Of a stretch of 42,469 nucleotides of DNA, positions 12,501 through 41,397 are shown in pieces. The number at the start of each line of letters is the position of its first letter. The first letter of the stretch is position 1. The DNA is taken from the NCBI GenBank assembly GCA_910592345.1, contig CAJVPI010000208.1:1-42469 (forward strand). The letters run 5' to 3'. Under the pieces are notes generated by a model. It did not search any database. It had not been told where the DNA came from and saw nothing but the letters and a program-made list of their open reading frames with translations. The translations under genes were made by a program, and so were the position numbers. Source of the DNA: Paraglomus brasilianum (Eukaryota).

Positions 12501-15500
12501 ATGGCTCACGCACCACCCTCGGGAGGAGTACAACTGACGGAGTTCGTCAAGAGGCCTGGCCTTGGCCGTGAAGGACGCCCACTTAAAGTGCGAGCAAATT
12601 TTTTCGAGGTCCTTTCGCTCCCCCAACAGGACCTTCATCATTACGATGTGACAATAACGCCGGATGTCCCCCCGGCTTTAAACAGACGTATATTTCAACA
12701 GTTCGAGGACATGTATCGCGCCGACCTCGCAAATATAAAGACCGTGTTTGATGGTACGTTTGCTAATACTTGTCCAGTAGCTTGCTTCATGTGCGTCACG
12801 TGTTCTTATACAAGCGCGACTGATTGCTATCGGTTTGCTCGGTTGCACCGTTTTATTCGATAACCTGTGGCAAGGGAGAAAGCATCTATGTAGTCTGCAA
12901 TTCGTGTTTATCGCCTCTTGATTTTAGCACCCTTTTTTACTTTAAGACACGCGTCGAATTTATTTGACTACATACTCGTCTCTAACCCTGTGCTTATCGT
13001 AGGTCGCAAAAATATATTTGCCCCCAAACCGCTGCCCTTTGGCGACGCGAGAACTTTCGAGGTGAGGCCAAATAACTTATCAACTGCACAGTATTTCAAT
13101 AAAAAACAAACATATTTAGTTATGCGACGCGTTTGTTTCAAATAGCTCACTTTACCAGAGGACGATGGTATAACGAGCTCCAAGCGTCCGCCGAGGAATT
13201 TCGTCATAAAGATGAAAAAAGCGGGCGCCATCAGAATGGAGGTGCTGCACCGTTTTCTCGATAACAAACAAGGTTTGACGAACGATTGTCTAACCGGTAA
13301 GGGCGAGCTATCCCCGATGGTGGTATCTATTCCGTATTATATATTCATAGTTATCTGATAACTCCATCTTTATTCTCAGGTATAATGGCCCTTGACGTGT
13401 TAATCCGTCATAAACCATCTATGGAACATACAACTGTGGGGCGATCTTTTTATACACCACAAGGCTCTAAGCCTCTATTTGGAGGTGTGGAAGTATGGCA
13501 GGGATATTATCAGTCTGCCCGCCCTACGCCACGTATGCACTATTCTAGTCTTTGTATCTGTGGTTATTTAAATTAGTTCTTAACTTTTTTCCGGGAAGAC
13601 AATTTATATAATTTCTATATATATATATTTTCTTCTCTCTACAGGAAAGATGATGATCAACATTGACTTGAGCGCTACAGCCTTCTATGAGGGCGGGCCT
13701 CTTGTTCAAATGGTAGCAAAGGTGTTGAACAAGCGAAATGTCGATGAGCTACGGAGAGGTTTAAACGACCGCGATCGTGTGAAGGTTGAAAAGGCGATCA
13801 AAAATTTGAAAATTTGCGTGACTCATCGTGGCGAGACGACCAAGAAGCGAAGATTTAAGATTATGAAACTTACACCAAGTCCAGCAAGCCACACAAAATT
13901 TGATGCGGGCGAACAGGGAACCATGGACGTCGCGACGTACTTTACCAAACAGTATAATACACGTTTGGGTTTTGCGTCTTTACCATGCGTGGTCGTGAGA
14001 AAGAATGTATTTTTGCCCATGGAAGTCTGCGAGGTCATTCCGGTAAGTCAAGTCGATACTATTCACTGACTGATTATTTTGCATATTCACAAATCTAATC
14101 CGGCTACTTATGAAGGGCCAACGTCATATAAGAAAGCTTAATGACCGACAAACGGCGGATATGATAAAATTCACGTGCCAACAGCCTCAAATGCGAGCAA
14201 ATAAAATCCGACAGGGGTTGGACATACTGAGTTATAGGACAAATGAGTATATGCAACAATTTGGTATGCGTGTTGCAAACGAAATGACAGTCGTAAGTAC
14301 ACGTGTTTTTATATGGTACTTCCCACGCTGGTTCATCATCAATATAATAATATTCTAACGTTCACTCTATTTCCTAGGTTGATGCACGAGTACTACCAGT
14401 ACCTACACTTAATTACCATGCATCGTCGACTGAGGCGTCCTTTGTTCCGAACGGTGGTGTATGGAATCTTAGGGGTAAGCGCGTGGCGACTGGAGCTACA
14501 CTTGGCTCTTGGGCAGTTATCGCCTTTGATCGGGAAGACGATTTGCGGATGAATACAATCCGGGGGTTCGTTCAAGAATTGGCGGTGACTTGCCAGGATA
14601 CTGGCATGGTTAGTAAAACAACGTAGAACTTAATGAATCGATATTTGAAAAAAACCATTGACAAAAACTTGCTATATTTTTTTTCCAGAACATCATGAAT
14701 AAATCCCCACCAATTATGTACGCTAATCCGCAGGGAGACATAGAAAATGCGTTGAAGCAAGCATGGCTTCGTGCTGGAAATGCCGCTAAGGCACAGCCTC
14801 AATTAATTTTGTGTATATTGCCAAATACTGGTGTGCCGCTTTATGCTGAGATTAAGCGAGTGAGCGATACGGTAATTGGTGTTGCTACGCAGTGCGTCCA
14901 AAAGAAGCACACTATGCGACCGAACAAGCAATATTGTGCGAATGTGTGTCTCAAGATTAATGTAAAGCTTGGAGGCATGAACTCATTCCTCAAAGCCCAA
15001 GACATTCCATTCATTTCGGATCGTCCGACGATCCTTATGGGTGCTGATGTGACACATCCCGCGCCTGGTAAGAGATAATAATTGTTGTAATGCTAAAGTA
15101 ATTCCTAAAATTCTAATCTGTTTCTATTGGTGTTGATAGGAGCGTCCAGTAACACTAGACCCTCCATTGCGTCCCTGTGCGCTTCCATGGACGCGAAGGC
15201 TTCAAGATACGCTGCATCAATCAGGGTGCAAGCGGGCCGTGAAGAAATAATTGTTGATTTAGTCAACATGGCCAAAGAATTGCTGAAAACGTTTTATCAA
15301 ACATGCGGGCGCAAGCCAGAGCGTATCTTGTTTTATCGCGACGGTGTTTCTGAGGGACAGTTTGCCGCCGTATTAAACAGTGAGATCAAGGCTGTAAAAG
15401 GTAAGAATGAAGAGATACATATATATAGAATTCATTCGGTGGCATTAACAACTTCTGACTATATCTTGGTTTGGGTTTTTTTCCCCAATAAAGCTGCTTG

Positions 15501-16292
15501 CCAGGCGCTCGATGCGCAATACAAGCCGACAATAACATTTGTCGTGGTCCAGAAGAGACATCATACTCGTTTCTTCCCGATGAATAAGAACGAGAGTGAT
15601 CGCAGTGGCAATTGTATGCCAGGAACGGTCGTGGAAACGACTATCATACACCCGTCCGAATTTGACTTTTGTAAGTATTTGAGCGTATAATTCGTGAAGA
15701 GTTCAAGCCTGATAGTAACCATCAACATCGTATTTCGTTACTTTCAGATCTTCAAAGCCATCCGGGTTTGCAGGGCACAAGTCGCCCAACGCACTATCAC
15801 GTTTTGTATGATGAGAACAATTTCAACGCCGACAGGTAAACGTTATTACTGCTTGTGGTATGCGTGTTATTAACAACTGCGTCTTTCTGAACTATATATA
15901 TTATTATTTACAATTAATCCAGCCTACAAACGTTGTCTTATAATTTGTGTTATCTGTATGCTCGTTGTACGCGAGTAGTATCTCTCGTAAGTGTTATTTT
16001 ACGTTCAATTATTCACAATATTTCTAGTTGACTTATATTGTAACATACACTTGCAGGTGCCTCCCGTGTACTACGCGGATCTCGTTTGTTCTCGTGCAAG
16101 GTTTCATAGTCGGGGGGAGAATTGGTCCGATACCGAGTCGTCCGAGGAAGGAACGGGCTCCGCTTCAAGTTTTGGAGTCGTCAAACCTGACCTCCAAAAG
16201 GTACATACATATTTGGTTTGTTTGCTGCACTTTGTTTATACTTATCGATACTGACTTTGGTCTATGTCTTGTAGGTGATGTACTTCATGTGA
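12501..16292 (+). CDS. ago: Argonaute (AGO clade), 850 aa, 14 exons, DEDD catalytic tetrad
   Basis: Exons 12501-12753, 13003-13061, 13146-13296, 13380-13532, 13645-14042, 14116-14292, 14378-14608, 14689-15067, 15140-15400, 15494-15670, 15748-15835, 15923-15986, 16057-16200, 16275-16292 (2553 nt). Motifs RPGLG..GR...[37 protein letters not shown] / [10 protein letters not shown] / QGTSRPTHY / PVYYADL, C-terminal MYFM. Confidence 0.97.
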
Positions 16293-20488: not shown

Positions 20489-23400
20489 TAGAGCGTCAGA
20501 GTCAAACACTTCACGGTGGAGCTTCTATTTATTTCTGTTCGAAGACAAGATAGAAGTCCGAACCTACTGCTATTTACGGCAGGTATCATCATGACAAGAA
20601 TAGATAGATCAACAGCCATAGTTCGATGCTTTTTATTAATGGTAATGGTAGCGCCACATACCCTGGCTTATCAACTATATTGCTGTGATTACTTTTGTAT
20701 AGAAATTTATTCTTCATTTTATGTATTGCGGGACAGCTTGTTTACACGAGTGAGTTGGTATATTTTCAATACACAATGAGTCTTGATATAACGAAACCTG
20801 TATATATGTACAATGACGAAGTTATTAAAACCCTAGTCACTATTACTGGCCCCAAGTCTATTGATTAATAAAAACATAACGAAGTTGTTCTGATAACAAA
20901 CTTCCTATAATTTCGACCATCACAATTCTTATCCCATGATAAATCCTAATATGCTCGTGTTGATTCTCGTTCATGATGGTTAAGAAATTTAAGGCAAGTG
21001 CTGTAATGACAGCCCGTTGAATATGACAATTTCAGTTCTGATGCATTTGAACGTGTCAAAATGGATTCCCTTACAAAGTAACTTGTCAGATTCACTTTGA
21101 GAGAGAAGGATTTGTAATCTATACTCGCAACTTGCCTGCGACAAATAACTTGCATTAATGTATGTTGGCTAGCCCATATGAGAAGTATTAAGGCCGGACA
21201 AGGTGGAAGTAATAATAACGCAACCGAATTTAGAGTTCAAATGTTGAATCCGCAATGATGTCGATTTGTAGGCAGCTTTTCAAGCAATGCGATGGTACAC
21301 AATGATAACTAGTTTTAGTAGATACATTCAACAAACGTTCAAATAATATCACTACGACTAATGAGAATATTGGAAATAATCAAATGTAATGGAACCTTCT
21401 GGGTGGCGAGGCATTTAGAAGAATAATTGTGGCGTCACTTTCAAGAATCCATTTTGGAGCACGGGTAAAATTGAAAGCATTTGCTAAATCGGTTATCCAT
21501 TTTTAGCTAATATTCATTATACATGTAACTTGCATCAATTTAGCTTAACATGGCGAAATAGATAACATGGACAGAGAATACAACCGTTTGTGTAATGAAA
21601 GAACTGGAATATGAAAAAACACGTCAACAATTGATAGAAACAATCATTAATACAGTATGTAACACTTATTCTCCCATCCTCGTAATGAGCTTAACGTCAG
21701 AGTTGTGAATATAAACATGAAATGCAAGTGTTGTAATAATTTAGTAATGCGTGCGTGTTTATATACTGACGCAAGTAAATTTAATGTTACAACAAAGAGC
21801 TGTAGTTTGGCGTCGATATTATCTTGAAACTACGAAATTAATGAGCGCAGTCGCCGACAAAATTCCGTATTTGCTACTGGACATTGAATGCTAGCCATAT
21901 CGGAATCTGACGCATTTAAACAGCGAAATCATATTCCAAACTTTTACCTAGGTAACGCTTGCAACTTGTGTAAATTTATTACGTAATATTAAAGTAATTG
22001 TAACAGCTGCTAATAGTCTTTCAAAATTATAGAAAGCAGGGCATTTTATTCTCACTTCGTTATTTTGCTTTAAGCCAAGGAAGCTAGTGTTAACATTAAC
22101 TTACAATTTACAAGATAGGACTAAGACATTTTTCGCTAATGTTAAAGAGGCAATTAATTTTTGCTTTACATACACTTTATTTGAACGCTCGGGTGTTGTT
22201 GATTTGATCTTTAGGCTTTTGCAGTCTCTCGAAGTCTAATCTCCCTGCCTCTTTAACTACTCTCTCTCAAATTGCTACTTTATCTTATGGTTGGGAGTTC
22301 TCGATCTAATAGAAATTCGATAGGCGTATTGGCTTGTATTCTGTGAGCTAGACTGCATATTTAAGCACGCAAACGCTTGGTTTGATTCGTTATGGATTAC
22401 TGAACTAAAAAACGGTTAAACTTAATGTGCAAGCGTTAATTCACTCGCTTAAGCAGTAGCACGTTCTAAATATAAAGGAAAACAAGTTGCTTAGAAGCTA
22501 TGCCAAATAACAGATTTCGGTCGTGTTTGCTTATTGTGACAACAACATTGTTGACTGATATGGCTAACAGCCATTCCAATCAAAAAAGCAGTAACTCAGT
22601 TATAAGTGCTGCGTGTATATCGAACCCAAAAGCCGCTACTAAAAAAAACTTGTGGTTTAAATTTTGTATTTGATACCGAAATAAAAACAAAATAAATTTG
22701 TCAATAATATGATAAGAGCAAACTCATCAGCGTATTTCTGACCAACACGCACAATGGCTAATTAGGTAGAATTGAGATGGGTTATGGCTTTGTAATGTGC
22801 AAGTGCCAGATATCTAATTTATTATACCACTTCATTCTTGGTATAAAGTTTTCGAAACAGTTCATATTAAGTAGAAAATGGTTACACATGACAACAATTG
22901 AATTAGTACAACTTTCATCTAACAACGAACTTTGTATTATTTATTTACCTAATAAGGCTTGTTTTGACATATTGCCTCAATTTATAAAACTAAAGACAAA
23001 TGCGGCAAGTATGCGATTTTAAGCCAACAGAAAATAACATCAAGTAAGGGGGAATGAAACAAACTTACCAAAAATATACAATAAACGTTCATCAAAGGTA
23101 AGGCTAGAAAAATTGTTTATAAGAGATATAAACAAACAACTTGCAATTGCAATCAAGAAACCGAAAAATGTATAGTAGTTGAATTACAGTATATGTTACA
23201 AACTCTTGTTATAGTCAACATTATACAACTTGGCTTGTGTGTCACGTTTTTTCTTCGATATACTGTATAACGATAATAGATAAACTTGTGACTCTTAAGT
23301 ATATGTATGTATACACAATAACATGACGTCATAATTACACCCCGTTAGTCTGCCACCAAACTTGTTTAATTTTTTTATACAATTTTATTTCACCAATATT

Positions 23401-24034
23401 GTGCGAAATTTTAAAAAAAAAGTACAAGAAAAGATAAAAAAGAAAGAAAGCAATAGAAAAAAAGAAGAGATAATAAATGAGAACGATATAAACAAAATAA
23501 TATGAATAAAAAAAAGATGAAAATATGAATACGAGGCACTATTACACCTACACCTAATCCTTCCAAAAAAAAAACAATTTCAAATTTTAAACGCTAATAA
23601 ATCCATATTAATGCTACTGTAACTTTAAACCATAATATATGTCTCACAATGAATCATTAGGAATGGAATCAGCCATCGTAAAGATAAAAAGAATAAACAT
23701 AAATAGTTTTCAAAAAACAACAACATAATAACCTTAGTTAAAAATAAATATCGTAAGAAAATTATGTATAAACTTAAAAATTTAAAGCATATATAATATA
23801 TATAGCGTATTGATATGATGATAGGTTGTATAAATTGGAGTTAATAAATCATTGTGAGACAGCCACTAAGTAGACAAACAACCACTTTCCCTTTGAATGT
23901 ACATAACCACTCGAATAGACCTCGACTTCTCGAATTTGAGAATATTAAATACAGAAAAGAAAAATGAAAAAAAAAATAATATGAAAAAAAAAATATATCG
24001 GTTTACTAAAAGAGGTTCGATACATTTGTTGCAA

Positions 24035-24354
24035 TCAGACCAGCTGAGCAACTCTAAATAGAATAATTTAAGTAATTGTGAGCACAGCTGTAATTACGTT
24101 ATCAAGAAGCAATTATATAGCTCAAGAAGCGAACGTACCTTAAGCAGCATTCCCGAGGAGAACGCGTTTTTAGTTTCTCTGATATTAGCAACCATTCATT
24201 TTGATACCTCACATAGTAATAAAGTAAGCAATAATCTTCCTGATAATATAAATAGAACGATTGAAAATTGTTTGCAATCTGTGAGCGAGAATGGCTGAAA
24301 GGTTGATAACGGTAAATAAACACTGCATACTTGTTTAGTCCAGTTGGGACGCAT
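24035..24354 (-). CDS. Single-repeat Myb microprotein A (47 aa): MRPNWTKQEDYCLLYYYVRYQNEWLLISEKLKTRSPRECCLRVAQLV
   Basis: Exons 24354-24331 (24 nt), 24239-24139 (101 nt), 24053-24035 (19 nt), both introns GT-AG. Myb W-x18-W spacing with WxxxED..L. Same exon architecture as 28201-28517 and as the first repeat of the gene at 40007. TATTTAAA upstream. Confidence 0.85.
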
Positions 24355-24494
24355 TATGATCTGATTGATGAATTTTTCGTTGACCAAAGTTGTGAAAATT
24401 TGAGTTTTTTTCTTCTTGGATTGATTTCTTGAATATTTGTTTGTATCAGACTTTGTTTAGCTGATGAGATTTCTCTACGTCTTTACGGCTTGCC

Positions 24495-24970
24495 TTTAAA
24501 TATCTTCTCGGCGCATTCTTCCCGCGCTTTCCCGCCAAGAGTGGTTTAGGTCAACATATTACTATTGTTCTGCTATTTAATTTTGAAATAATTGTATTAC
24601 TCGTTAAATGCGGTTAAAGTTTTCACCAGCATTTTCCCGCCATTATTTTTAGTACATCCATTGTTTAGCATAGTCAATAGGTCAATCAAAAATTGATACT
24701 CGGTTACTCTATTGTTATTTTGGCGGTAAATACGAGGACGTTGTTTACACTTCTATTGAAAGAGAACAATAGGATTACAAATTAAATATACAGTGCTAAA
24801 TGAATTTAGTTTAAATACATTATACCGTATTGTTTGTTTATTTTAGTCACTAATAAATTCTCTTATTCGGAACTATCACAATATGACGCGAAACAAAGCT
24901 ATATCTTTGTTTGTGGATTACTCCGAAAGTAAATCGGCCTATTTTTTTTGCATAACTCCCCCCCATTGTT
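24495..24970 (-). promoter_or_regulatory. Putative promoter of microprotein A with E2F-like, HMG-box-like and Myb-core motifs
   Basis: TATTTAAA (24502-24495). TTCCCGCG 24519, TTTCCCGCC 24528, TTTTCCCGCC 24632, TTTTGGCGG 24718. ATTGTT/AACAAT at 24564, 24660, 24711, 24765, 24829, 24965. CGGTTA at 24611 and 24701. Confidence 0.55.
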
Positions 24971-27859
24971 ACCGAGCAATATGTGGTACAAGACGCAAAT
25001 TTGTCTAAACGAATTCCCCTTCTTTGTCGTCGCTACGACAGCACACGGCTTGAGATACGAAATCAATAATGGCCTGAAACCAGTCTCTCCTGCATGACTC
25101 AGCTTAGTAAAGACGAATTTTAATTAATCCCTTTTATGGTATCTTTGATGTTTGAATCGAGGAATTTTACGACCCGAAAGTATGGTTAATATACTATAAT
25201 AGTACTATGAATAGTAATGTATTGGTCGGTAAAAAACTTATATCTGCCTGTAAATAATCTATTAACTGTCAAAAAGCGTGAAATAAACATGAAAAAAATA
25301 TTTAACGTATATCAAGTATATTATTGTTAAAGCCAAGTTCGACTGTACAAAAACCATCAAAAGTGGTACTATATTTACAGTATTCGGCTATTGAATTCTT
25401 ACAAAGACATTGTTAATCGATAGCTTCCAATCGATAGTCATCTTCGACCAAACTATTTACGGGGTATTTAATTATCGCACATACATTTGTCTTGGTTAGC
25501 TGTTGACGATGTCAAAATCTATGTATTCGGCAAGAATCGTACAATTAGTAAATGTGCGGATATGTGCGAGATTGTACACCGTGCCTGTAGAAGTTCATAC
25601 CAACCGAATACAGAAATCTTGAACATTGCCGAATGTAGACGAGTTTATTCAACATACAGTTCCCGTGATTCAATAGCTTATCACCGTGAGAAGTAGATGA
25701 TAAGTTGGTCTCACATGCTATGATACATATTAATATACTCTGACAATCAGGGGTTAATGATGCATGTGCCTCGACATTAGCTAGGTTATTCACCCATGAA
25801 TATTCATAAAGAACCCTTGTTATTGATGTTATTATTATAGCACACGAATTTGTAATCTAAAGTACAAAGTCGATTCTGGCCAATAGAAATTAACTAATAA
25901 AGCAAAATGATTGGCCATATGATGTCTTTTATGGTTGTATATCATTATTCATTCTTAACAAGCATATTTTATATTAATATAGAACATATGAATAAGAATA
26001 CAATGAGAGACATTGCTACATAATTATAACCGTATTCATACTACACTTATTAGCATATGTGGATCAACATCGATAACGAATAATATCGTCGATTTATCGA
26101 AGGAGGCTCCGTAGTCTACAAAAGACCGAATAACTTAATGTTTAATGAATAAAAATCGGTATATTTTTGTTCTAGTAATTGTTTCTGTTACCTTTCCGCA
26201 CATTCTTTGGGGCTTTTCGTACCGAGTTGTCTAGCAATAACAATCCATTTTGGTCCATTATTAAAATACAAGACCAATAACATTCGGCTTTCCTACAATA
26301 AAATTGATCGAATCGGTAAAAATCCACTATCCTCAAAATTGATAACAAGCAGGAATGCAATATCTCACAGCGATTGTCCATTGAACTCTCATAGCAACAA
26401 TTTCAAGTTAAATTTGTTCTGTTTTTGGTATATGACTAATATTAAGTTTGCCGCTCTTTTTTTTTCTATTTATATCCGGTCTCAGACATTACATGTATAT
26501 TAACATAATAAAGTATGGCAAGCTATATAATGCTTTAAATTTATTGGACGGATTATATTAATATAAACATACATGCACAGCTCTTGTGCTAGAGACCGTT
26601 GCTACCTTGTCTTCCTCTCTTCGTTAATAACTATTGCTACAGTGTAGATCAACAATGGAGTTGTCACACACTTTTTGTGTCATATCACGCCATTTTGTAT
26701 AGCGATAATCGTAATACAATGACCAACAATGAAACACGTCGCAAGGCTTTGTCTTTATCATCTACACCTTAACGTTCGACGCTAGTATTACTAAGTATTA
26801 GTGTGGCGACTGGATTGATCGAGAACTTGAGACATGACTGAGACAAATCACCTCATTTTAACAAACAGAATCGCACAACATTATTGCAAATACGGCGTAC
26901 AAAACCAAACAACATCGACACAAAAAAGACCTTTTGTTGTTAAAAATAGGTGTTATCAAAATATGTAGAGAGTTTTAACTTTTATTGGTATTATTAATCA
27001 CATCGTCCCACTGTTGTAAAAGCGTTCCAGACAATATTAAGAGGCAAACACCAATAATTAGCTCTAACAGTCATTACACACTTTTCCATTCGTATCAACA
27101 AAAGCATTGCACCCCTTTCTCTATCAGTTACATCAGTCAACAAACGCGCAACCATTAACCATAACTTACTCCTTAATGTGTTTGATACTTCGTGATGACG
27201 AGAGGGAATTAATTGGTGGCTCTCGAGTTTGTGATAATCGATCTTACAAAAAAAATTGATACAATGAATAAACAGTTTGATATTTATGAAAGAAGAATAA
27301 ACTGATGGAGACTACTAATAATTTATTGATCAAGCATTACAATCTGTTACTAGAACGGTATCAGTAATTACGTATCAAAATTGCGGATTGCGACTTGCTC
27401 TAGCGTTGCAATAATAGACAAGTTTTTGTCCTAAAAAAGAGCAAACCTATTTTTAAACTTGCCGAAATTGCAAACATATTAACCAGAACAAATATTCGGT
27501 AAAAGGTTTGCGCGATTACGTTATTCCGAACCATAATAATAGCAGCAACTATAGCGACACAGTTTACACAGACACCAAACGCGTTTCATTGCAGAACAAT
27601 CTTTACTCGCGGTTACTAAGTTTCCGCATTAGGAGTTAATTAAATCTACGCTTAGTTTCTTGCGATTACTGGTAGTTTCCATGGACGTGCAAGGGATAGC
27701 CACCAGTTTCATGCGTTTCATACTTTTTACCCCATGAAATGAGATAAGCATTTGTTCTAGAACAGAATGCAAAAGCACTGGTAGCGGATTACGCAAATTG
27801 TTATGGGCCGATCTTCATTACAAGGATTCTCTTTGTTCACGTCAAGTCAGAATAATATC

Positions 27860-28138
27860 ATTGTTAGTTTCTAAACTTAGACAGTAATGTAATCACATTG
27901 TTCATATTGTTCTCTCCTACAACGAATAAAAATCAATCTCATTGTTGATTTTGAAAATAACAATGACAATATTTTGAGTTTTTGTAACATAAATTTAACT
28001 ATCACAGTAATAGGCGGGAAAACCATTACTTCGAACTTAATAATGACAAACGTTGGTCGAGCAGCCGCGAACAATACTAACAAGTTGTAGGACAATTCTG
28101 GCGGAAGCATGGAAGGTACAGACTTCACATCTATTTAA
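27860..28138 (+). promoter_or_regulatory. Putative promoter of microprotein B with an HMG-box-like cluster and an E2F-like site
   Basis: ATTGTT/AACAAT at 27860, 27897, 27906, 27941, 27959, 28070. GGCGGGAAAA at 28013. TATTTAA at 28132. Confidence 0.55.
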
Positions 28139-28200
28139 GAGCATGGTGGCAAGAATGGGAGCTGGCATCAACTCAAAAAAAATTAAATCTTTCAGACAAA

Positions 28201-28517
28201 ATGCAAACACCTTGGCAACCAGAGGTAAATTCAGCTCATAAAATTTATCTTGTTTTGTTTTTCTAAATTATTAATCAGCTTATTGTAATCAATAGGAGGA
28301 TTTCATGTTGCTTAATTTATTTCACACTGTGGGCGCCAATTGGCCCTTCCTCTCTCAAGAACTTAAGACCCGCTCGCCGAGAGAATGTGCAATTAGGCAT
28401 GATTTAATTACATTAAGAAATACGCTTTTTTGTAAATTGGTCAATAATGTTATTATTCTATCTAACGCATACATTTTTTGTAAATCTAATAGGGTCCAAC
28501 AATTACTGCCTATGTGA
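28201..28517 (+). CDS. Single-repeat Myb microprotein B (49 aa): MQTPWQPEEDFMLLNLFHTVGANWPFLSQELKTRSPRECAIRVQQLLPM
   Basis: Exons 28201-28224 (24 nt), 28296-28396 (101 nt), 28493-28517. Intron 1 is GT-AG; intron 2 is GC-AG with a CTAAC branch point. 21/47 residues identical to microprotein A, including LKTRSPREC. Confidence 0.85.
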
Positions 28518-29200
28518 AAAACTGTACACAAATAACATAACGTAAATCAGTAATTCGATATCGAGGAACACGTGTTCTGCATGACACCATCATTCAACAA
28601 ATTATCAACCACCCACATTTAATTCATTATGCACTTACATTTACTACGTTAAGCTTGTATATTTAAGAAATTTTATCTTTAAGCTATAACTGAAATTTTT
28701 TTACTTTATTAAGAGACATTGTGACTAATAGTCCGATGATATACTCAATACTACCTGTAAATAGCATTCTGGTTTTCCCGCATAGCACGGAAGTTTATTA
28801 TTGTTACAACTTTTGGGTTTTACTTTTGGATGTTGGAATGTCACGTGCATGGCTGTTCGAATAATGGTCACCTTCGAAATTTACTTCTTTCTTCTTTTTT
28901 TCTTTTTTTTTTTTCGTCTTATACCTGTCTACTTATCTATATATTTTGTGCTTTTATATTGTTTTTATTATTTTTGTTATATCAACATTATCAATTGCAA
29001 TGAATAACCTATTTTATAATTAAAGAAAGTCTCAAGTATAATAATTGCTTAAGAATTTTTGAAATAACAGTCGTAGCTTAACCGAGTTAGTGTAGTCGCA
29101 ACAAATAGGACAACATTTGCAGCACCGTTAGTGATATTAGGAAAGTATGTGGTTATCCAACTCAACTATATTGCTATTAATACGATTAATGCGATAATTA

Positions 29201-29667
29201 CACCCCCCTGACAAAAGTATAAGTACGAGACGAAATTTTACTAGTAAAACATAAAAACTCTTTATTTTCGAAAATCTCTATCGTCCATACGTACTATGTA
29301 ACTCACAATGATTTTGGTACCTTTTTGAAGCTAATTGACTGTATTTTTCGAAAAAAGTGATGTGGAATTTAAATTAGTTACTGTAATGAAGAAGTAGTTC
29401 GATAAAGTGACGGCACTATGTTATACATATGATTTCATATGTGTAACATAATTTTGCCACTTCCTCGAACTACAGCTTTGAAACGACAACAGGATTGAGT
29501 ATATTATAATTTTTTCTGAAAAATACAATCAATTAGCTTCAAAAAGGTACCAAAATCATTGTGAGTTACGTAGTACGTATGGACATAGAAATTTTCGAAA
29601 ATAAAGAGTGTTCATATGTTTTACTAGTAAAATTTCGTCTCGTACTTATACTTTTGTCAGGGGAGTG
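29201..29667. mobile_element. 467-bp foldback MITE (Tc1/mariner type)
   Basis: TA-CACCCCCCTGACAAAAGTATAAGTACGAGACG ... CGTCTCGTACTTATACTTTTGTCAGGGGAGTG-TA. About 150 bp of near-perfect terminal inverted repeat plus an inner palindrome centred near 29433. Confidence 0.95.
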
Positions 29668-30050
29668 TATATTACCTTTATTACAGTTTAGAGACATACA
29701 GCTTTGACTCAAGTGATAACCTAGTAGTCTATTGTAATACTACGCGAGAAAATTTTGACTTGTCCGATGCCTGTTTGTTTTCCATAGGAATAACAATGTC
29801 GTGAACAAAGTTAAAAAAAGTCGCTAATATTGGATATACAGTTGTCTTGTATACTGACAGTCAAGTAACGTGAACCTAACACTTAGATTGTCTTTTACTA
29901 TAAGCTGCTGACCGACGGGCGGGGATGCGAAAGTAATATAGTATTCGAGTACACTGCTATACTTATGCAAGAAAGCTTATTCATGTTATAGAATGTCCTT
30001 AATGGACAATCGATGGGAATTATTGATTACGGGTTGAACGGAAAGATATA

Positions 30051-30177
30051 CACAGTAAGTCCAGTTTAACGAAGTGCTCTGTTCCACTGTTAATGCGAAC
30101 GTATATTTTATGTGCAGTATTTATATACTGTATATATTTCGTTATAAGGCCATTTTCGTTAAACCGTGGATCATACT
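30051..30177. mobile_element. Degenerate small pogo/Tigger-type MITE
   Basis: TA-CACAGTAAGTCCAGTTTAACGAAGT resembles the TIR of 30940-31510. An imperfect inverted copy TTCGTTAAACCGTGGATCATACT sits at the other end. Confidence 0.4.
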
Positions 30178-30939
30178 ATTTGATTAGTTTTTGATCGTTA
30201 CCACGGGTACACAACTTACCAGACAGTCGTGACAATCGATCCTATTAGAACCAATATTCGCACGAGTTACTATTAAATAGCAATTTAACTAGTATCTATT
30301 TTCTCAGTTAATTTAAGCTTACAAACTTGGCGATATTGTATCTTAATTTGGTTGGTTCTATCGTATTACAATAGTCTGGAAGTAATTGTCATAAACAATT
30401 TATTGTGTATTATTACGAACATTGCTTATTATCGAACGATAGGAGATTATTTATTGCTTTGAAGCGTGGAAACAATTATGGTTTATAATTTTGTTACTAA
30501 GAATTAAAGCCGGACTTTTCTGGGGCAACTTTAGCGTCTATTATTTCGACATAGTGACAAGGCTGAAGTGACAGGCTGCTGAATCAGTTCACACGTTGTT
30601 ATTTCAGTATTTAGCAATCAAGCTCCAAGTCAAAAGTGTTAATATAAAATACCGTATTTTGCAACTCAATTTTAACACCTTATTTTTATGTAGTTTATAA
30701 ACTTTTTGTTTCAACAGTATTAAATAATACAATAAAATCAATATTGCTAATTGTTTTTGCACTACTGAATGCTAAGATAAATAAGAAGTTTATTTAAAAA
30801 ATCATGCTTGCATTACAGGCGTCTTTTGAGTTTGTTTGGTACTTTCTACCTTTTATTGTTTACCGTAAAAAAGTCTAAATTCACCAAGTAAATATTTCAA
30901 GCAAAATTTTTTGTACACTTTAAGTTCAATTATTATTTA

Positions 30940-31510
30940 CACAGTGAAATTCACTTTAACGAAGTCGTCCGTTCTGCAGATAATCTGAAAGATTCGTTAT
31001 CCCGAAAGTAATGTAATAATTCACGTGATTTGATTTTATTATGGCGATTACAAAATTTTATACATTAAATATATTCCATATTTAACTCCTCTTGTCGCAA
31101 GTATAACAAAAGACCGTTAATACTATTAATAGCTTCAGCTGATAATACCTTTCTCATTTCCTCCTCCTCTTCTTTTTCTTCTGAATGTCCTTGAATAGTT
31201 GCTACAATTTCTCTCATAATGCGTGAGTCTTAGTAACAAGAAGACACAGCGATGCTGGAATTTATTGATATCGATGATTCTGATTAGTTAATTCCTATAA
31301 CGAACTTCGTTATATTATAATAAACTTTGTTATACAAATAAATTCGCCCAAGTGAATGGCTTTATTTATGCATGGATTTTGAAATCTTTGTTCAACGTTA
31401 TATAGCACTTTATATGTTTATCCTGTTAAGAGTAAACTGGTTCCAGAAAAATACTTCGTTATGAGCCATCTTTGTTCAAGTGAGACTTTGTTAAAGTGAA
31501 TTTCACTGTG
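30940..31510 (-). mobile_element. Non-autonomous pogo/Tigger-like element
   Basis: 27-bp TIRs CACAGTGAAATTCACTTTAAC(G/A)AAGTC flanked by TA. Internal minus-strand EIVATIQGHSEEKEEEEEMRKVLSAEAINSINGLLLYLRQE (acidic Tigger/CENP-B-like C-terminus). Confidence 0.88.
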
Positions 31511-34500
31511 TAGTATGAAGCTCTAAATAAATAGGGCATATTATTATATTATTATATAGATACAATATATAATTTTAAGACATTTCAAATTTCTGTAGCA
31601 AAAATTAATTAATTTAGAGAAAGCAGGTCTATTACTATTTGCAAATACAATTATAAAGTGCTAAACCATGATTCATTAAACTTGCTGGATTCAGCATGTG
31701 ATAGCTCAGGCATTACTTCTGCCTGCTTCCCAGAAAATCCCATATTGGTAGCATACATAATAAAGAATTGTTAACTAGTATCTAATAAGTTCTCAGGTGT
31801 ATGGTTAATATATGATTATCCGAAGTAACGCATACCAATGCTTATTTTTAAAAAATTTTGTCAATTCACCTCTAAATCACCAACTTCTAAAAGCAATTTT
31901 AAATAGTCCTTTGCGAGCAGAATGTGTGCGTATTGTCGTGTCGGTTAACGTTAATTAACTGACCTTAAGATTTAGCTGTATACTCAACCTTAACTCTGAG
32001 AAGCCTTCTCTTCGACTATTGGTACCTATTATTAAGATTTCCAGCATTCTTATCCTCATATTAGGTGGGATTCTTTCTCTAATAGCAATGACATCTGTAA
32101 TAGATAACAAATTGTTGGTGCAAATATGCATAGGAACATTAGAAGTATTGTTATTCTACTTCCAATTATAATCGTCACATTTTCTGACTTCGTCTACTAT
32201 TCTACGTTAAAATAAATATCAACGATAATACAGTCGCCAATTATTGGTGTCCGCTCGACAGGTTAATGTATTCGCGACAAGTTGGTTCCTCTGTCGCTGA
32301 TTGTTTCACTAACTGTCTCGAAGCTAAAGGTATGCAACTATGTGTTAATAAAAATTTTGATTATACATATACCAAAAACGTGTAACAATAATTTCATTTC
32401 TCGTCAACAAAACAAGAGATTCCACGTTGGTTGTGAGGTGCCCACTTTAATGCCAACCTCAGCCAATTACATCACTTATTTTGCCATTAATTGCATAAAT
32501 GTAATTGTAAAAACTCAATACAACAAAGCTCAGAGTTATAAAAATGCATATTTAAATCGAAAAATCCCCAACACTATCTTTTTTAAGCAGCTAATAATGG
32601 AGCTGTCAAAATGCAGACATTTGTAATTTTCTATCAAATTACTCATTCTATTCATATGCGAAACATTAGGCTTCTCTTATTTTATATCTAGCTGGTTAAA
32701 GACAATGCTAATCGATCAAAGTGAGATTGGAAATGCTAAGAGTTTACTCAATCAAACATACGGTTATCAACCGGAATTTCAAGACAGCGATTGATAACAC
32801 CAATAGTATGTAAAATGTAGACACTCGTGTCAACTCAATTCTTAAATAACTGATCATCATTACTAAGTTAGATGTCCCAATGGGTGCACGATCCGTTCGT
32901 CCAATATGGCATCAATTTAAAATAGAATCGTTTACGTAATAAAAGCGCCCTAATTGGTTAGCACGTCAAAATAGAAAATGTTATCGGAACATTGAATTGA
33001 TCTTATTACGTAAATGTCATCATTGTAAATCACGTGCAAAGGATGCATTTTTCTTACATGCCTTTTAAACAAGAAAGTGAGCAGTTTGAGGGGGAAATCA
33101 CGATATTAATATGCAACAGAGTAAGGATGGTTCTACTCTATCTATGAGAAACCTACACATACGTTCTTCGACTGTTTATGACGCAAATACATGTAAAAAT
33201 ACTTAGACCTATCATGACGGTGATATATGATGTAAGACAGTCGATGAAATATGAGGGTAGAGTTTAGTAACGATCGGATATCCATTGGTTTTACGATAAT
33301 AGATTCAACACTATTGTCCATTAAGAAATGAACAAACAGACAACTAAGCCATAATCGCTTCGGATATTAACAAATAAGAATATCTATTATGTGTAAATTT
33401 TAGGTTTGTAGTCTGCTGTGTGAAGCGAGACCATTCACAACTAAAATACATTTGTCGTTCTGGAGGAATAATCTTAAATACATGGTAGCGAATCAATTCA
33501 TTTTGTAGGTAAGCACAAATATCATTAGTTCTTACACTGTAAAAGTAAAATATCGTCTCTGTGTGTCGATCAATTAAAGCATATAGTTAACGGTTTCGTT
33601 TCGATAATATAATAATTTGATTTCTATTGCAAGCAGCAACAACACAATCGCAGCGACGCATACTACATATAATCATAATTGGGAAAGATGGCATTGAATG
33701 TTGCGAAGTTGAAAAGTCCGTTTTCAGTTTGGTTTGTTAGTAAACAAGGAAGTTACCATACTTGAAAATGTCTCTCACAGCAAGGTGACACTTGGTTGGA
33801 ATACCAAAAAGTGAGAAAAGCTCCTGAACAAAATTTCTGAAGATGTTTAATAAAGTGTTTTGCTACCAGTCAAAGGGTGTTTTTTTAAACCGTTGGTCAC
33901 TGCTTGTCAATAAAGACGTCTAGGTATGAAATCAGGTCGTGTGTCTAATGTCGATTTTTAAATGAAAAAAAAAAATAGATTGTTGACGGTCTACTGCATA
34001 GACGTCACCGGGAAGGGGTTGACTGTCGGTATTGATAAAAGCCAAACGCTTGGTATTATCTTAATTGCTTCGCAAAAATTAAATCCAAAGACATCTTTTC
34101 CAGGATAACATCACACACTGAGACGCGGAACCGAAAAATTCCATTCGGTGTACTATTCAGAGTGCAGTTAAAGATTCGTGGAATGAATTAAACTAAAGAA
34201 TTAGATCATCTAAAGACTAGGATTAGGCCAAATGTTAAAAATATGAAAGTGTAGACTATTAATGAGAAATATTCAGGATCTCATGTAAAACTTGAATTGT
34301 AAATTCGTTTCGCATTTGATAGCAAGTCGCAAGAACCACAAGACAGCGCTGATTAAGGTGCTTTGTACAATTCAGTGAGCATGAGAAGCCAAACATATTG
34401 GTTGAGCTTAAGATAATACATGTGTAAATCCACATGCTGTTCTCCGTCTTTCTTCTTTCTATGCCAAAACAAGAGATTCTGCCTTACATGCAATCTACCT

Positions 34501-34560
34501 CTTACTTCGCCAAGAGAAGATGTTCCAGACCCATTTCGAATGGTTTATGGGAAATAACTT

Positions 34561-34592
34561 AGTACGAGATGTTCAAAGTACGAGATGTTCAA
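34561..34592. repeat. Exact 16-bp tandem duplication
   Basis: AGTACGAGATGTTCAA x2. Confidence 0.85.
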
Positions 34593-37500
34593 ATAAGATT
34601 AGACGTGTATACCTAATTGATCTACACTCCCCCTATCGATTTCCAGAGTCTCTGATTGACATATTCATAAGCGACCTAGAATATTCGGCATGAACAACGT
34701 TATTAGACTATAATGTACACGGCTATTATGTCAGCCAGTGCATAGTCTACATAATAGTCGATTAACTGTCTTTTAAACTAATAAATTCAAGCTGCTAAAA
34801 ACACGGACATTTTGCCGTCCAGGTTTTAGGTTTTTATTTTAAGCGGTTCATATGATGAACTTATAATTGGAGGGGGGCTGAGTGCTGCTAGCGTTACACG
34901 TAGAAACGATTGAGCAGTTTCACTTTCAGGGCAAACAAAGCAACAAACATGTTTGAGATAATAAGTGGCTTGCGCATTCTGGTCATCTGCGACATCGTTT
35001 TAGTGGTTCGGATGTCGAGTCGCTGCAGCGTTTCTGGCATCCATAACGGTATATATTGCTTGTGCTGATGAGACCCGGAACTCAAGCTATTTAGGTCTAG
35101 AAAGACATGCAATAATAGATGTCTTTCTAAGTCTCATATACAAGTTTTACTAACGTTAGGAGTCTTATGTAAATTATTAATATTATGGGCGTCAGGCAAA
35201 GTAGGCTTTCCTTAAAGGCATAATAAGTCGTCGATATATGTGCTATCTTGTGTTTATTAATTGTAATATAGATGGCTATAAGATATTGTATATCATACAG
35301 ATTTGCGTTTGACAAATAACGTCTCCCAATCGCGTATATGCAATTAATCACGTGTTCTGGTTTTTTATTAACGCTAAATTAAGTTTCATTAACGGCAGAG
35401 GTTTTTAAAGTAACAATTTGTGGTATGAAGGCATAGCCACCGTAGGAGTAGTAATCGAGTGCAACTTTAAGCCCACGGTATTAGTTTAATCTGGTAGAGC
35501 GCTTTTTTTTTTCCTTTTTTCTTTTTTTTTGGGACGAGTGAGAGATCAACGCATGTATGCTTTTAACAGGGACAATAAGTTGTGATCCCGATGTTATGTA
35601 AGCAAGCAAAAAATTTAACGTGACCACTCTTTACGGACGTACAATAAACAACAGATAGTAAAAAAAGTTGATTGATTTGCTTGAGAAACTTCCTCGACGT
35701 TTGATATTAATCTTAATTTAATTAAAACGAGTCAGAAACAATAATTGGGAATGGACATATTGTCATACCCGATGTGGCGTAGATAATACATGGTTAGTAA
35801 GTCGACAGACAATTTATTCCCAGAGATCACAAGGAATGGATCGAGAAAATGTCATATAAATTGTACTCATTAGGAGGACGTGTTCCCCGAATCGAACACC
35901 ATATAATTTATTTGATTGCACTATACAATCTTTGATTAAAGTTTGTCGGATTCGGATTGTTATCTCCGTACGTTTATATTTTTATGCGAGATTTTCTTTT
36001 ATTTTCTAACAATAGATACCGAAATGTCAATCAAACTCGAAGCGTGTATGAACTGTTGGCTATTTCGATTACTGTGTTTCATTCAGTTCTTACTTGTATC
36101 GGTTGGTGTCTCGTCATTGTTATTGGTAACCGTTAGTTTTGCTTATTTATCATTTGCCTTGTGACTACACGATTGACTATGCAATCAAATGTGACGCGAC
36201 AATCAATTTTATTCGCAAAAACGTTCGATTCTTGCACCATAAACAACGTGTTACATTATGTATCTATGTGATTAGTATGATAAGTCAAGGCTTTTCTACT
36301 GTAATTAATACTGATTCGTTATTCATACTATGCAATTGTGTCATTATTGATAAGCCTGACTATATTGCCGTTTTGCTAAGCTTGATACACCTCCGAATAT
36401 GCAGGAGAATACAAGGTGCACAAGATAGTACAGTTCAATATATTATAGTTATAAACAATAATTGGTGCCCCAGCAGAGTCTATTAAACGAGTTGACGTTC
36501 TAAGAATTCGATTGTTGGACAATCACAACTTCATATTGTAATTATGTGTGAATAATGTTTGTCCGACGTATACTCTTGTATAATTGACATTCTTCAATGC
36601 CAGTTATACGGAAACGTGGTCCCTCGATCATCGATTATGTTAGTGGCAACCATGTGGCGTTATGAGACAAGCTTTGTATGTGATATATGATTCTGCAAAT
36701 GTGCACTCCGAAGTATTTGTACAATTGCTGTATTTGTATAATAGAATACTTTTTTGTTTCTTCTGTTGTCAATGCAAACTATTTAACCGTCTTTGAATCT
36801 TCCGTGGGTTTACTTGACGTTTAAACCGACGACAATCTTTATTTATTTTCCAAGACAGTATAGTCGCGAAATAATGAGTGCCAATATACTTTGTGTCTAT
36901 GGTTAGAAAGTAGTAAACGGTAAACAATAAGCAGTTACTCCGGGTGTTTACTACAATCGTATATTATTTGTTACGTGGCTCTATTTTTGGTTTTTTTTTT
37001 GTTGTAACACATGTAAGAGATTGGAATGCTTAATTCTGTTCACAGGGTTACCACATATATTCGAATTTAGATATATATAGCTAGCTGGATAGTTTTATAA
37101 TGTCAGATGACTGATGAAAACTTGTCATTTTATTCACATCAAAGAGCTGACATACAAAGGCGTTTGACACCTCTAATTTAATGCATGTCATATTGGGTAT
37201 TAAAAATCGTCCAAGTTTTTATTTCCTTTTTTTTTTTTTTTGTTTTACCGAGGAAAAACAAACAAACCTTTTCTCTCGAATAAGATGAGGTGAATGGCCA
37301 GGTTAATAATAAAATGTCCACTGGATATATGTAAGCGTTTACTGTTACATGCAGTCTATTTTGATGTATGCAAATACGCTGTCGCACGGATTATATCGTA
37401 ACTTTTTCCGTTCAAACAATTTTCCCGAGATAATTTTTATCAGAGAACTTGCGTTGAAGCTTTTTCCCTTCCCCTTTCTTCGCGAGGGGGTGAAATAAGG

Positions 37501-38099
37501 ACTGTTTGATGTTCATCGAAACCTTGTTCAATAATCTCAAAAAATACCTGAATGCGGCCGATACATTCTCTGCGAACATAGTGAGGCCATTTTCCAATTG
37601 ACAACAGATCACTCAACAATTTGGTTAGTGTCCACGCAACATACATAATTTAAACAATCATCGTAGTCATATTTGTCGGAATAGTTCTATTAAAAGGTTG
37701 GCTTTTCGTAATGGCTACCGTATAATAACAGACAAGTATAAATAATAAAACAATGGTATTTATCAGGCAGTAGACAATCGATATTCAAGCATAACTGTTC
37801 GTGAATCAATTTGCTTATAACGTCATTTAAAAAATTTTCCCCCCGTCCTCATCGTCGTCGCCGTCATCATCATTAGTTAAACTCAAGCAGTCAGATCCCC
37901 GCTCAAGCGCAGGGGATCTTTCAAACGTATATGTGTATATCACACATAAGCGTCATTTACAATCGCAAAGTACGGATGTATCATCCGAAATTCCGATTGA
38001 CGATTGCACGACTTGAATAATAAATTTTAATTAATAGGAATCAAATAGAATTGGATTGTTCGACTTCCCAGAACATGCTCTTTTAATAATGCAATTAAT

Positions 38100-38310
38100 A
38101 TGCAAGCTGTTCCCCTTTTTGCGTTCAACTACAGCTTTAATTCTCTGGACAAGATTTTCTGTCGATTGTCTAATGACGTTATTTACCATTCGATACCATT
38201 CGATACCATTCGATGCCATTCCATGCCATTCGATACCATTCCATTCGGTACCCACGATGATTGCTTTCTCTTTGCTTGCCTAACTTTTCTCTCCAACTTA
38301 TTCCATATAT
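38100..38310 (-). mobile_element. Tc1-family transposase C-terminal fragment interrupted by a micro-satellite
   Basis: Minus strand IWNKLERKVRQ upstream of the repeat and ENLVQRIKAVVERKKG downstream of it (WxxLERxVR and RIKAV..KG patterns). Confidence 0.5.
38186..38245. repeat. (CCATT-CGATA)n-type 5/10-bp tandem repeat
   Basis: ccatt cgata ccatt cgata ccatt cgatg ccatt ccatg ccatt cgata ccatt ccatt. Confidence 0.9.
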
Positions 38311-39009
38311 ACCATATATACCAGTTACGGACAGAAATGCTCGTTCAATTCGTTATTATCGCGGGGAGGGGAGGAGGGTTAAGAAATAGAGATTTTTTTA
38401 TTTATTTTTTTTTTTTTTGCAGATAATGTAAAATAAAGTTCTACTATTATTTACTGCTTTAATAATATTTACAATCATACCGAATTCATAGCATAACCTT
38501 GTCCATCCCACACCACACGCCATTGCCCCTGAAGAATTATTACAGTTGGTAGTGCCGATCTATTGAATAGCGAAACATTTACTTGATTTGTCAATCGCTG
38601 TCATATAAGCCATCATTTTATAGTAGCTGTTTCCCCCTAGAGAGTCGATTTGGCAAGACGCAAGTCGGAGCCCATGACATGATATTGTAGTACACCTCCT
38701 ACAAATACTCTTTTGGACTAATATGGCTGTGGCTGTGGCATTCGTTGGAAAATCTCTCCAAGCGATCATTTCTTTAGGGCCGAACGATGAGGTTTAACAA
38801 TCATAGTTTGAAGACGTTAATCAAGATGAACAAAGTCTTTTTCTTTTTTTAAAAAACTGGGTTTCCTATAATAACCGGGCTTATATGACAATCACATAGA
38901 TCTTTTATTGGTAGGGCGATAAACTTTTGTTCGCTGCAAGGTTTTATTAGACAAAAACATACACGATCTTCTTATGTTAGTATTGTTGTATTTGCATCCA
39001 TGTCGGTCA

Positions 39010-39063
39010 TTCTTCTTTTTCGTCTTCTTCTTCTTCTTCATTCTTCTTCTTCTTTTCCTCTTC
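39010..39063. repeat. Imperfect (CTT)n microsatellite
   Basis: Runs of tcttcttc... Confidence 0.7.
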
Positions 39064-40006
39064 TGAACATCAATATGATCGTTGATATCATATCATCGAC
39101 CCGTCATATCTAATCATTTATTGAAGTTCGACTCTTGTACGCGGAGTATGCCGAAGTGCAAACGATTTATTGTATCCGTCGCAATGAAACATCATCATAA
39201 TTGCCATTTGCCAATTTCAAAGGTACAAACGCAACGAAAAAGAATGGATGAGCCGAGAACAAATTCAACAATGCAACGATATAACAATGAAAGCGACCTG
39301 CTTCTTGTTATATAATATTGGATGTTATAAACAAATAATATTGCACACGTGTAGTATACAACATGTCTTTCATAATAAAACGCCCGCGGTTCAATCCACT
39401 ATACGAGCAAGGATTTCCGAATACAACATTTGTTTTGCAACACAGCTAAACACAAAAGGCATAATACAAAAAAAAGTATGACATAGGTTGGCTTCTTTGT
39501 TATCGGTATTGCTATTGACAAATGTTGCATGTTACTGTATGTACATGTACCTCTGACCACGTTGTTCATTGTGTTATTACTTATAATGCTCCATTATCGT
39601 ATATATGTACAATATATACATATACAATAGACAATATACAATACAATGTACTTATGTGTGTATATGTATGTATGTTTATCAGTTGTAAACCAGATCAACA
39701 TCTGAATGACAAATGCAATTCCACCAAGACGCACACACCAATTAATATAAATAAGGGCATTTCTCCTACTCTTCATGTTACTTGTTATAAACCTTTTTTT
39801 TTCCCCACATAACTGAAATTTTGTTCTCTTATGACCGGAAAGAAAAAATAGTCCAGTTCATTAATTAAGCGTCCTTTATTCTTTACTTGTGCCGTGTACA
39901 AATAATTATATTTATTTGTTATTATTCGTATAACAACGTCGAGTTTGATCACCCGGATTCATAAAACTGTAGATTAAAAAGGAAAGCAAGTATAATCAAC
40001 GTTTAC

Positions 40007-40934
40007 ATGTCAAGAATGAGAGCTCCCTGGTCCGAGGAGGTAAAGAAAATATAAAAGAGTTGTAGGGAAAAAAAAAAAAAGTGGGTGGGGAAGGGAAAGC
40101 AGGACAAATTCGTAGCAACGATCAAAAAACCATGGCGCCCGAGATTGCGATAAATCGTATAAAAAAGTAGAGCGAAAAAGAACATTGATTTACATAATAA
40201 AGATCTCGAATGTCATATATTTATTCAACTCTCCTTCCGTCGACAACTGCAGGAGGACGCGCGCTTAAGGGATCTGGTTCAGGCTTACGGACAAAAGTGG
40301 CAAAAGATCTCGACCATAATCAAAATGCGCGAAGCGAAGCAATGCAGGGAGAGGTAAATATTAACAAAACCCTCTTGTCAGTTGACATTATAACCACCAG
40401 AATCGTGGTGTTAATCAGACTAATATCAGCGTTTTTCTGTTACTTTCATTGCTCGCTTGTAATCGAAAAGATGGTCAAACCACCTACGACCCGACAGTAA
40501 GTGAATTAACGATTTGACTAATTACCATAAATAGTATTTATACGTTCATACTCCCTACTTTTGTTTCCGCTAACTTATTAACCCATCGTTCTAACCCCTA
40601 TAACACTTTCATTTTTTGGTTCTTTCCCTTTCCTTATCCGGCTCACTCAGTTGACAAGTCCCCTCTAAAAGAATACGAGAAGCAAAAAATTCGCATCTTA
40701 CAACGTAAATTTGGCTGTAAATGGACCGAAATTGCGGCTCAAATTCCTGGAAGAACTGGTCTTATGGTAAAAAACTATTGGTACAACGAGGAAAAGAGAG
40801 CCAAGCACCAAATGAGAAACAAGATGGCTATCAGCAGATTGCTTCTTTCGCCTAATGAGATAGAAGAGCAGGTGAGTAATTGGATGGAAATGGCACGAGG
40901 CAAGGAGTTTGAAATTGTTTTCCCGGCACAATGA
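40007..40934 (+). CDS. Small two-repeat (R2R3-type, FlbD-like) Myb transcription factor (~136-147 aa)
   Basis: Exons 40007-40039, 40253-40353, 40471-40496, 40651-40934 (or 40651-40871 plus 41041-41070). Protein MSRMRAPWSEEEDARLRDLVQAYGQKWQKISTIIKMREAKQCRERWSNHLRPDIDKSPLKEYEKQKIRILQRKFGCKWTEIAAQIPGRTGLMVKNYWYNEEKRAKHQMRNKMAISRLL...; not visible in the ORF track. Confidence 0.92.
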
Positions 40935-41216: not shown

Positions 41217-41397
41217 GTAACGAAGACTCATCGAATGAGACTATATGTAACGAAGACTCATCGAATGAGACTATATGTAACGAAGGCTCATCGGATGAGA
41301 CTATATGTAACGAAGACTCATCAAATGAGACTATATGTAACGAAGACTCATCGGATGAGACTATATGTAACGAAGACTCATCGGATGAGACTATATG
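41217..41397. repeat. 30-bp minisatellite, 6 copies
   Basis: Unit GTAACGAAG(A/G)CTCATC(G/A)(A/G)ATGAGACTATAT, head to tail with no spacers. Confidence 0.97.

Follow-up and report, generated by a model that had tools for sequence, protein, structure and literature searches.

The question raised by this locus is whether short reading frames that spell the same nine residues with almost entirely different codons are genes constrained as proteins and, if they are, what such small proteins do. The locus lies in a window of 42,469 nucleotides (nt), positions 1 to 42,469 of contig CAJVPI010000208.1 in the Paraglomus brasilianum assembly GCA_910592345.1. Three short genes stand there in the order A, C, B, each encoding 47–49 amino acids (aa) with a single Myb repeat; C was added by a six-frame search. 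They are very probably constrained protein-coding genes. As to their role, we tentatively favour the reading that all three are decoy or adaptor microProteins, competing with two-repeat Mybs for a protein partner and not reading DNA alone. Their size and architecture are those of microProteins in the sense of miPFinder, as far as the available text of its description goes (PMC5381583): less than 140 aa, one domain, and a larger relative in the window, the two-repeat Myb gene D.

Gene A (24035–24354, minus strand; 47 aa) consists of exons 24354–24331, 24239–24139 and 24053–24035, with two GT-AG introns between them, one 91 nt long and in phase 0, the other 85 nt long and in phase 2. This model is identical to P0001, a public P. 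brasilianum gene prediction ending at 47 aa. Gene C (26094–26392, minus strand; 48 aa) has exons 26392–26369, 26292–26192 and 26115–26094 and two GT-AG introns of 76 nt each, in phases 0 and 2. Gene B (28201–28517, plus strand; 49 aa) has exons 28201–28224, 28296–28396 and 28493–28517; its first intron is GT-AG, 71 nt long and in phase 0, and the second is a predicted GC-AG intron of 96 nt in phase 2, which is in frame and contains no stop. The common anatomy is thus an exon 1 of eight codons, an exon 2 of 101 nt and a short exon 3, for which there are three, two and one candidate acceptors in A, B and C, respectively. The first-pass annotation had described two genes within 24139–28396. That observation holds, but these coordinates are the ends of the second exons only, and the third copy, C, sits between the two.

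The case for constraint starts with the nonapeptide LKTRSPREC, encoded at 24147–24173 (minus strand) in A and at 28362–28388 (plus strand) in B. As claimed initially, it is identical in both genes while eight of the nine codons differ, by nine nucleotide differences, all of them silent, and the spliced proteins are identical at 21 of 47 residues. Eight differing codons out of nine is what saturation predicts, and it adds little to the count over the whole gene, where A and B use different codons at 15 of 18 identical degenerate residues. Nucleotide identity between A and B is 0.58 at codon positions 1 and 2 and 0.20 at position 3. The non-synonymous divergence (dN) is 0.58, and the proportion of differing synonymous sites (pS) exceeds 0.75, hence the synonymous divergence (dS) cannot be estimated for this pair. 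When the 76 differences between A and B were placed without regard to codons, the mean number of identical residues was 8.2 and the maximum 18; none of 40,000 such runs reached 21 identical residues or a run of nine, and therefore long-term purifying selection on the protein is well supported. C agrees with A at 18 and with B at 19 of 47 residues, its silent sites are saturated as well, and for the pairs with C none of 40,000 neutral runs was as conserved. In a simple simulation of neutral decay of gene B, 0.1% of the copies were still intact at 0.5 substitutions per site. The introns, which the first-pass annotation had found dissimilar, are indeed so: the two A–B pairs were matched or beaten by 96% and 10% of 500 shuffles, and in none of the 12 pairs compared did fewer than 5% of 500 shuffles score as high. 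With saturated silent sites, unrelated introns and conserved residues, an old duplication with the copies held as proteins is upheld, and long-term protein constraint on A, B and C is well supported. This constraint covers the time since the copies split and by itself cannot show selection today. The divergence claimed for helices 1 and 2 holds for the stretch that had been quoted, but this stretch is helix 1 only (residues 7–20 of the model).

Few relatives of the short genes were found. A search for short relatives yielded P0001 and P0002 only (both of two candidates), and a repeat search gave the same; P0002 is the reading of gene B with the intron retained, from two metagenome contigs. None of 13 candidates proved to be a longer relative sharing words with the short genes, and atlas searches returned general Myb clusters only, under 0.9. 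Galdieria P0003 and similar multi-repeat Mybs, seen among the best 150 of 162 matches in the 1.84-billion search, were rejected as orthologues, since their high scores sum over repeats. The shortage of relatives is weak evidence of rarity, because small genes often go unannotated and clustering at 50% hides close relatives. A scan of metagenomes confirmed one locus (L001) among 75 pattern matches. It is 99.9% identical to the window, with two differences in 2130 nt, both non-coding, and exons 1 and 2 of C are unaltered in it; with such near-identity it has no power for polymorphism tests. One of the differences, at position 1872 of this locus (26395 in the window), falls at position -3 of the C start codon and replaces a purine by a purine. 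A search of sequencing runs listed no RNA run containing the locus, which bears neither way on expression.

The regions upstream of the genes offer a separate line of support, in their sequence, for the short genes being live and co-regulated. The E2F consensus is GCGSSAAA (given so in the accessible part of PMC4862756), and a sense-strand match to it lies no more than 300 nt upstream of all three short genes: at 24528–24535 and 24633–24640 (minus strand; 174 and 279 nt upstream of A), at 26447–26454 (minus strand; 55 nt upstream of C) and at 28014–28021 (plus strand; 180 nt upstream of B). A fifth site of the cluster, at 28774–28781, is on the minus strand, opposite to that of B, and comes 260 nt after the end of this gene. 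The window contains eight matches versus 3.25 expected, and five of the eight are within 24.5–28.8 kb; about 2.5% of its 300-nt stretches (215 of 8434) have one. D has no match within 300 nt upstream, the comparison with neighbouring promoters covering D, the HECT-like gene and the list of GCGSSAAA matches. In addition, A and B have in common upstream a 10-base GC-rich word, of a length equalled in 5 of 2839 random pairs. The motif was first spotted by eye in A and B, so that only the C site is an independent check. The protein binding these sites would be E2F, judging by the consensus; E2F has been reported in early-diverging fungi, according to the available portions of two papers (PMC4862756, PMC12638772).

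That the encoded domain is a Myb repeat follows first from the profiles. A scores 33.3 bits against PF00249 (cut-off 24.4), covering model positions 1–41 of 46, while exon 2 alone gives 19.8 bits (E 8.8e-4) for B and 24.2 bits (E 3.8e-5) for C, both under the cut-off. Structure prediction for A with an alignment of 26 sequences yields a three-helix Myb fold with a predicted local distance difference test score (pLDDT) of 91.7. Its top fold match is c-Myb repeat 2, with a template modelling (TM) score of 0.81 and a root-mean-square deviation of 1.0 Å. The alignment was built from Myb proteins, which favours a Myb result, and none of its rows reached E 0.001. An earlier model from three sequences, with a predicted TM score of 0.45, showed poor similarity to Myb repeats, and VIA-align found no match to it with Z of at least 5; after the 26-sequence model was obtained, we attributed this to the shallow alignment. 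Thus A is predicted to have a normal three-helix Myb fold. Two of the three regularly spaced tryptophans are kept, and the third is V, V and L in A, B and C.

The model of A matches the SANT domains of the BAF, RSC and NCoR complexes as well as it does c-Myb (TM 0.80–0.87), and the contacts to DNA are reduced. The short proteins could accordingly be SANT-like modules that become part of complexes acting on chromatin or in co-repression and have nothing to do with control of two-repeat Mybs. We consider this quite unlikely, as similarity of folds does not tell Myb from SANT, while both gene structure and sequence link A, B and C to a two-repeat family, to which D belongs.

Gene D (40007–40934, plus strand) lies 12 kb downstream of the cluster. 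It has exons 40007–40039, 40253–40353, 40471–40496 and 40651–40934 and encodes a two-repeat Myb of 147 aa with the C-terminal sequence MAISRLL. Introns 1 and 2 of D interrupt the same codons in the same phases as the introns of A, B and C. The counterpart of D in P. occultum, P0162, differs from it at two of 127 residues. A profile search gave 16 matches among 75 candidates, including ten two-repeat Paraglomus records, five per species. The two-repeat Paraglomus Mybs are mostly 113–115 aa long, and some bear consecutive locus tags on one contig. One more compact two-repeat Myb, Ambispora P0050, was among the best 150 of 162 matches of the 1.84-billion search. The family is annotated by locus tags only; the best solved relative of its profile is c-Myb (E 7.8e-29). 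The short proteins align with the first repeat of these two-repeat proteins, which is similar to R2 of c-Myb, and not with R3; in this repeat 12–19 of 38 residues are identical to the rows of the two-repeat family. In helix 3 all three have SP[RK]EC, with P and E where ten of ten parents have A and Q, and the position of the third tryptophan is W in ten of ten parents; these and other counts over ten parent rows omit P0161 and the fragment P0163. The likely parents of A, B and C are these compact two-repeat Mybs, a family that has expanded in Paraglomus.

A tree of first repeats with 13 rows (P0161, P0162 and P0163 were left out, as were six rows that are unnamed or from outside the Glomeromycota) places A, B and C in one group with the weak support of 66/73, and A with B at 85/79. 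In a tree of 19 rows, which has little resolution for the most part, C is not grouped with A and B. A single origin of A, B and C would be the most economical interpretation. Within the two-repeat family, five Paraglomus records (P0092, P0156, P0157, P0158 and P0161) no longer have the final tryptophan of repeat 2 or the contact of the Lys128 type, the C-terminal motif being kept in all but P0161. The family may hold further decoys.

Could the short exons be parts of longer proteins, with exon 2 spliced to exons further on? More AG acceptors do exist downstream, and retention of intron 2 of B keeps the frame open, yet so do 15% of 96-nt non-coding stretches (811 of 5488). Both tblastn and a repeat-2 profile located repeat 2 in D only and detected no exon for it in the neighbourhood of the short genes; the publicly predicted A protein is complete with 47 aa, and all three genes have homologous short last exons. 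We regard longer proteins as very improbable.

Only slightly more credible is the possibility that A, B and C are remnants of two-repeat genes, recently truncated or silenced, whose silent-site signal was inherited. The saturation between the copies dates the constraint to the whole branch and not to the present day; the family undergoes rapid expansion and divergence and has other odd members, such as P0161; and B has a GC donor. However, three copies with unrelated introns agree in being short, in the position of the stop and in the similarity of their tails, and no trace of a repeat-2 exon was found. The earlier rejection of pseudogene debris thus stands: start, frame and splice sites are intact in three copies, A is predicted publicly, and the upstream motif is common to all.

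What, then, do the proteins bind? In c-Myb, base contacts come from both repeats, with Lys128 in one and Lys182 and Asn183 in the other, to which Glu132 and Arg131 are added (available text of PMC2673439). Lys182 and Asn183 belong to the repeat that is missing from A, B and C. In the alignment, Glu132 is replaced by L in A and by I in B and is E in C, while the residue at the place of Arg131 is C in A and A in both B and C. Helix 1 has 9, 7 and 7 hydrophobic residues of 13, compared with 3–7 in the parents. The absence of repeat 2, the changes of Glu132 (in A and B) and of Arg131 (in all), and the hydrophobic helix 1 together favour a decoy or adaptor.

Several observations pull the other way. 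The Lys128 position remains basic (R, R and K in A, B and C), as does that of Arg133 (R in all three). The best-conserved stretch of the short proteins is the turn and the recognition helix, which fits DNA binding too. Spliced forms of B and C were not found among public predictions. The residues of Lys128 and Arg131 have also been lost in eight of ten parents, so that missing contacts do not set the short genes apart. Hence the main rival is that A, B and C are genuine proteins under constraint which have retained DNA binding, in the form of dimers or together with another factor, and which directly repress Myb sites or block them: the recognition helix is best kept, and most parents lost some of the same contacts. 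The identical nonapeptide covers the turn and the first half of this helix (helix 3 of the model), the predicted fold is that of Myb, and the net charge is +3 for A and +6 for C. On the other hand, conservation of the nonapeptide stretch is common to Myb repeats at large, two of the three key base contacts are missing together with repeat 2, the Glu132 residue is gone from A and B, and B has a net charge of -1. We therefore hold DNA binding to be possible but less probable than the decoy or adaptor role.

The last exons provide a hint as to how the short genes may have arisen. The tails are VAQLV in A, LRSLL in C and VQQLL in B. Among the two-repeat records of Glomeromycota, 11 of 12, including the fragment P0163, end with the motif M[SA]Ixx[IL]L, P0161 being without it. 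Against this C-terminal motif the tails of A, B and C score 8.4, 11.5 and 8.3, whereas comparison with the last part of helix 3 in the parents gives -4.6, 0.5 and 2.9; the peptides that follow chance acceptors (n = 601) score as high against the C-terminal motif in 1.5%, 0.2% and 1.7% of cases. Between the motif and the stop there are 0, 2 and 1 residues in A, B and C, versus 1 in nine of ten parents. As the tails resemble the last motif of the parents, they suggest an internal deletion joining repeat 1 to this motif. The last exon of the short genes may thus be the parental C-terminal motif, which is of the Tup1 type: the pattern [VI]xx[IL][LM] has been linked to Tup1 binding in yeasts (accessible text of PMC4943189).

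This assignment has its own weak points. The same text calls the enrichment of the motif not especially robust and defines the pattern outside domains, whereas here the tail overlaps helix 3 of the model (PMC4943189). Since the tail is the predicted end of this helix, its first and last residues would be in the core and may not be free for Tup1. The strict pattern is present in B only, A and C being one residue off. With the tail completing helix 3 in the model, repacking after the loss of the third tryptophan would account for its leucines just as simply. Finally, a tail of five residues with few candidate acceptors makes thin evidence.

Taken with the decoy or adaptor reading, these data outline the following course of events. 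An ancestral short gene would have come from the compact two-repeat family by loss of repeat 2 and would then have been duplicated twice. The products would titrate a partner of two-repeat Mybs or, alternatively, hold a partner via the hydrophobic helix 1 and recruit the Tup1-Cyc8 co-repressor to it. The three genes would be switched on together through the E2F-type sites, which would tie the brake to the nuclear cycle. The complete form of this scenario, in which deletion of repeat 2 spliced repeat 1 onto a Tup1-recruiting tail and made 5-kDa, E2F-driven repressor adaptors that brake the compact Mybs in the nuclear cycle of an early-branching mycorrhizal fungus, is unlikely as a whole.

The nearest analogues are the plant R3-MYB proteins (CPC, TRY, ETC1-3 and TCL1-2), which likewise have one Myb repeat and no activation domain, are truncated two-repeat Mybs and occur as several paralogues (available text of PMC9638782); the predicted fold of A matches that of CPC (7fdo) with a TM of 0.85. 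The fungal genes differ from them in being about half the size (47–49 aa versus approximately 9–13 kDa) and in keeping the first repeat, not R3. According to the same text, CPC and TRY act as competitors of the parent Myb in binding a partner, and Arabidopsis miP1a and miP1b, B-box proteins that consist of a single domain and a short C-terminal co-repressor motif, recruit the co-repressor TOPLESS (PMC9638782). A, B and C resemble the latter in their layout and are unlike them in having another domain and another co-repressor, with a motif that overlaps helix 3 and a binding that is putative. A, B and C do not belong to the plant R3-MYB family; they may work like its members and would have a separate origin. 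What we take to be the signature of basic helix-loop-helix (bHLH) binding in plant R3-MYBs is absent from A, B and C by inspection.

The compact two-repeat Mybs of Paraglomus and Ambispora (D, P0024, P0050, P0092 and P0155–P0162) are close in the first repeat, the N-terminus and, for D, the intron positions, and are set apart by the second repeat and the third tryptophan, which the short proteins lack, and by SP[RK]EC, which these have. With c-Myb R2R3, the best solved relative of the family and, in its repeat 2, the top fold match of A, the difference is that the short proteins have one repeat, with most base contacts missing or changed. The Tup1-binding motif of yeast MATalpha2 (IxIxxLL) and the eh1-like [VI]xx[IL][LM] are similar to the parents' C-terminal motif and to VQQLL of B; the fungal motif is C-terminal and not N-terminal, A and C deviate as described, and its binding is predicted only. 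A literature search, made mostly in titles and the starts of abstracts and with thin coverage of subscription journals, turned up no fungal Myb microprotein, and the accessible text of a review of hidden fungal genes does not mention Myb (PMC11413187).

The rest of the window is that of a eukaryotic, fungal genome, with short introns and housekeeping genes identified by Pfam: an Argonaute gene with PAZ and Piwi domains (12489–15900, plus strand) adjoins genes for a HECT-like protein, a lipoyl ligase and a GDA1/CD39 apyrase. In a stretch of about 19 kb (20600–40000), the three short genes aside, no long frame could be assigned to a protein family; 11 kb of it, upstream of D, may be regulatory. 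Copy counts of the short Myb genes refer to this window only. At 700 nt downstream of B, a 470-nt fold-back element (29199–29669) with long inverted arms (70 + 79 nt, 90–92%) is likely a miniature inverted-repeat transposable element, and 30938–31512, with two inverted arms of 29 nt that match at 97%, is possibly a second small transposon. There is a repeat with a 10-nt unit at 38184–38241, and at 280 nt downstream of D a 30-nt unit occurs six times in tandem at 95% (41217–41397). An open frame at 2438–2764 (plus strand) contains a TGDETW stretch, which presumably recalls a fragment of a mariner-type transposase; Pfam gave no transposase match there. A search of the window against Rfam gave no matches.

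Overall, the evidence for constraint is good, and that for the origin and co-regulation of the short genes is suggestive. Single-repeat Myb microProteins are a classic plant means of patterning cell fates, and little is known of how arbuscular mycorrhizal fungi control the division of their nuclei and their development. Two of the three genes were not found among spliced public predictions, an illustration of how genes of this kind fall under the limits of annotation. If A, B and C work like the plant proteins, this would be a convergent invention in a root-dwelling fungus and would point to an arbuscular mycorrhizal Myb circuit made up of expanded compact Mybs, a Tup1-type tail and E2F-type promoters.

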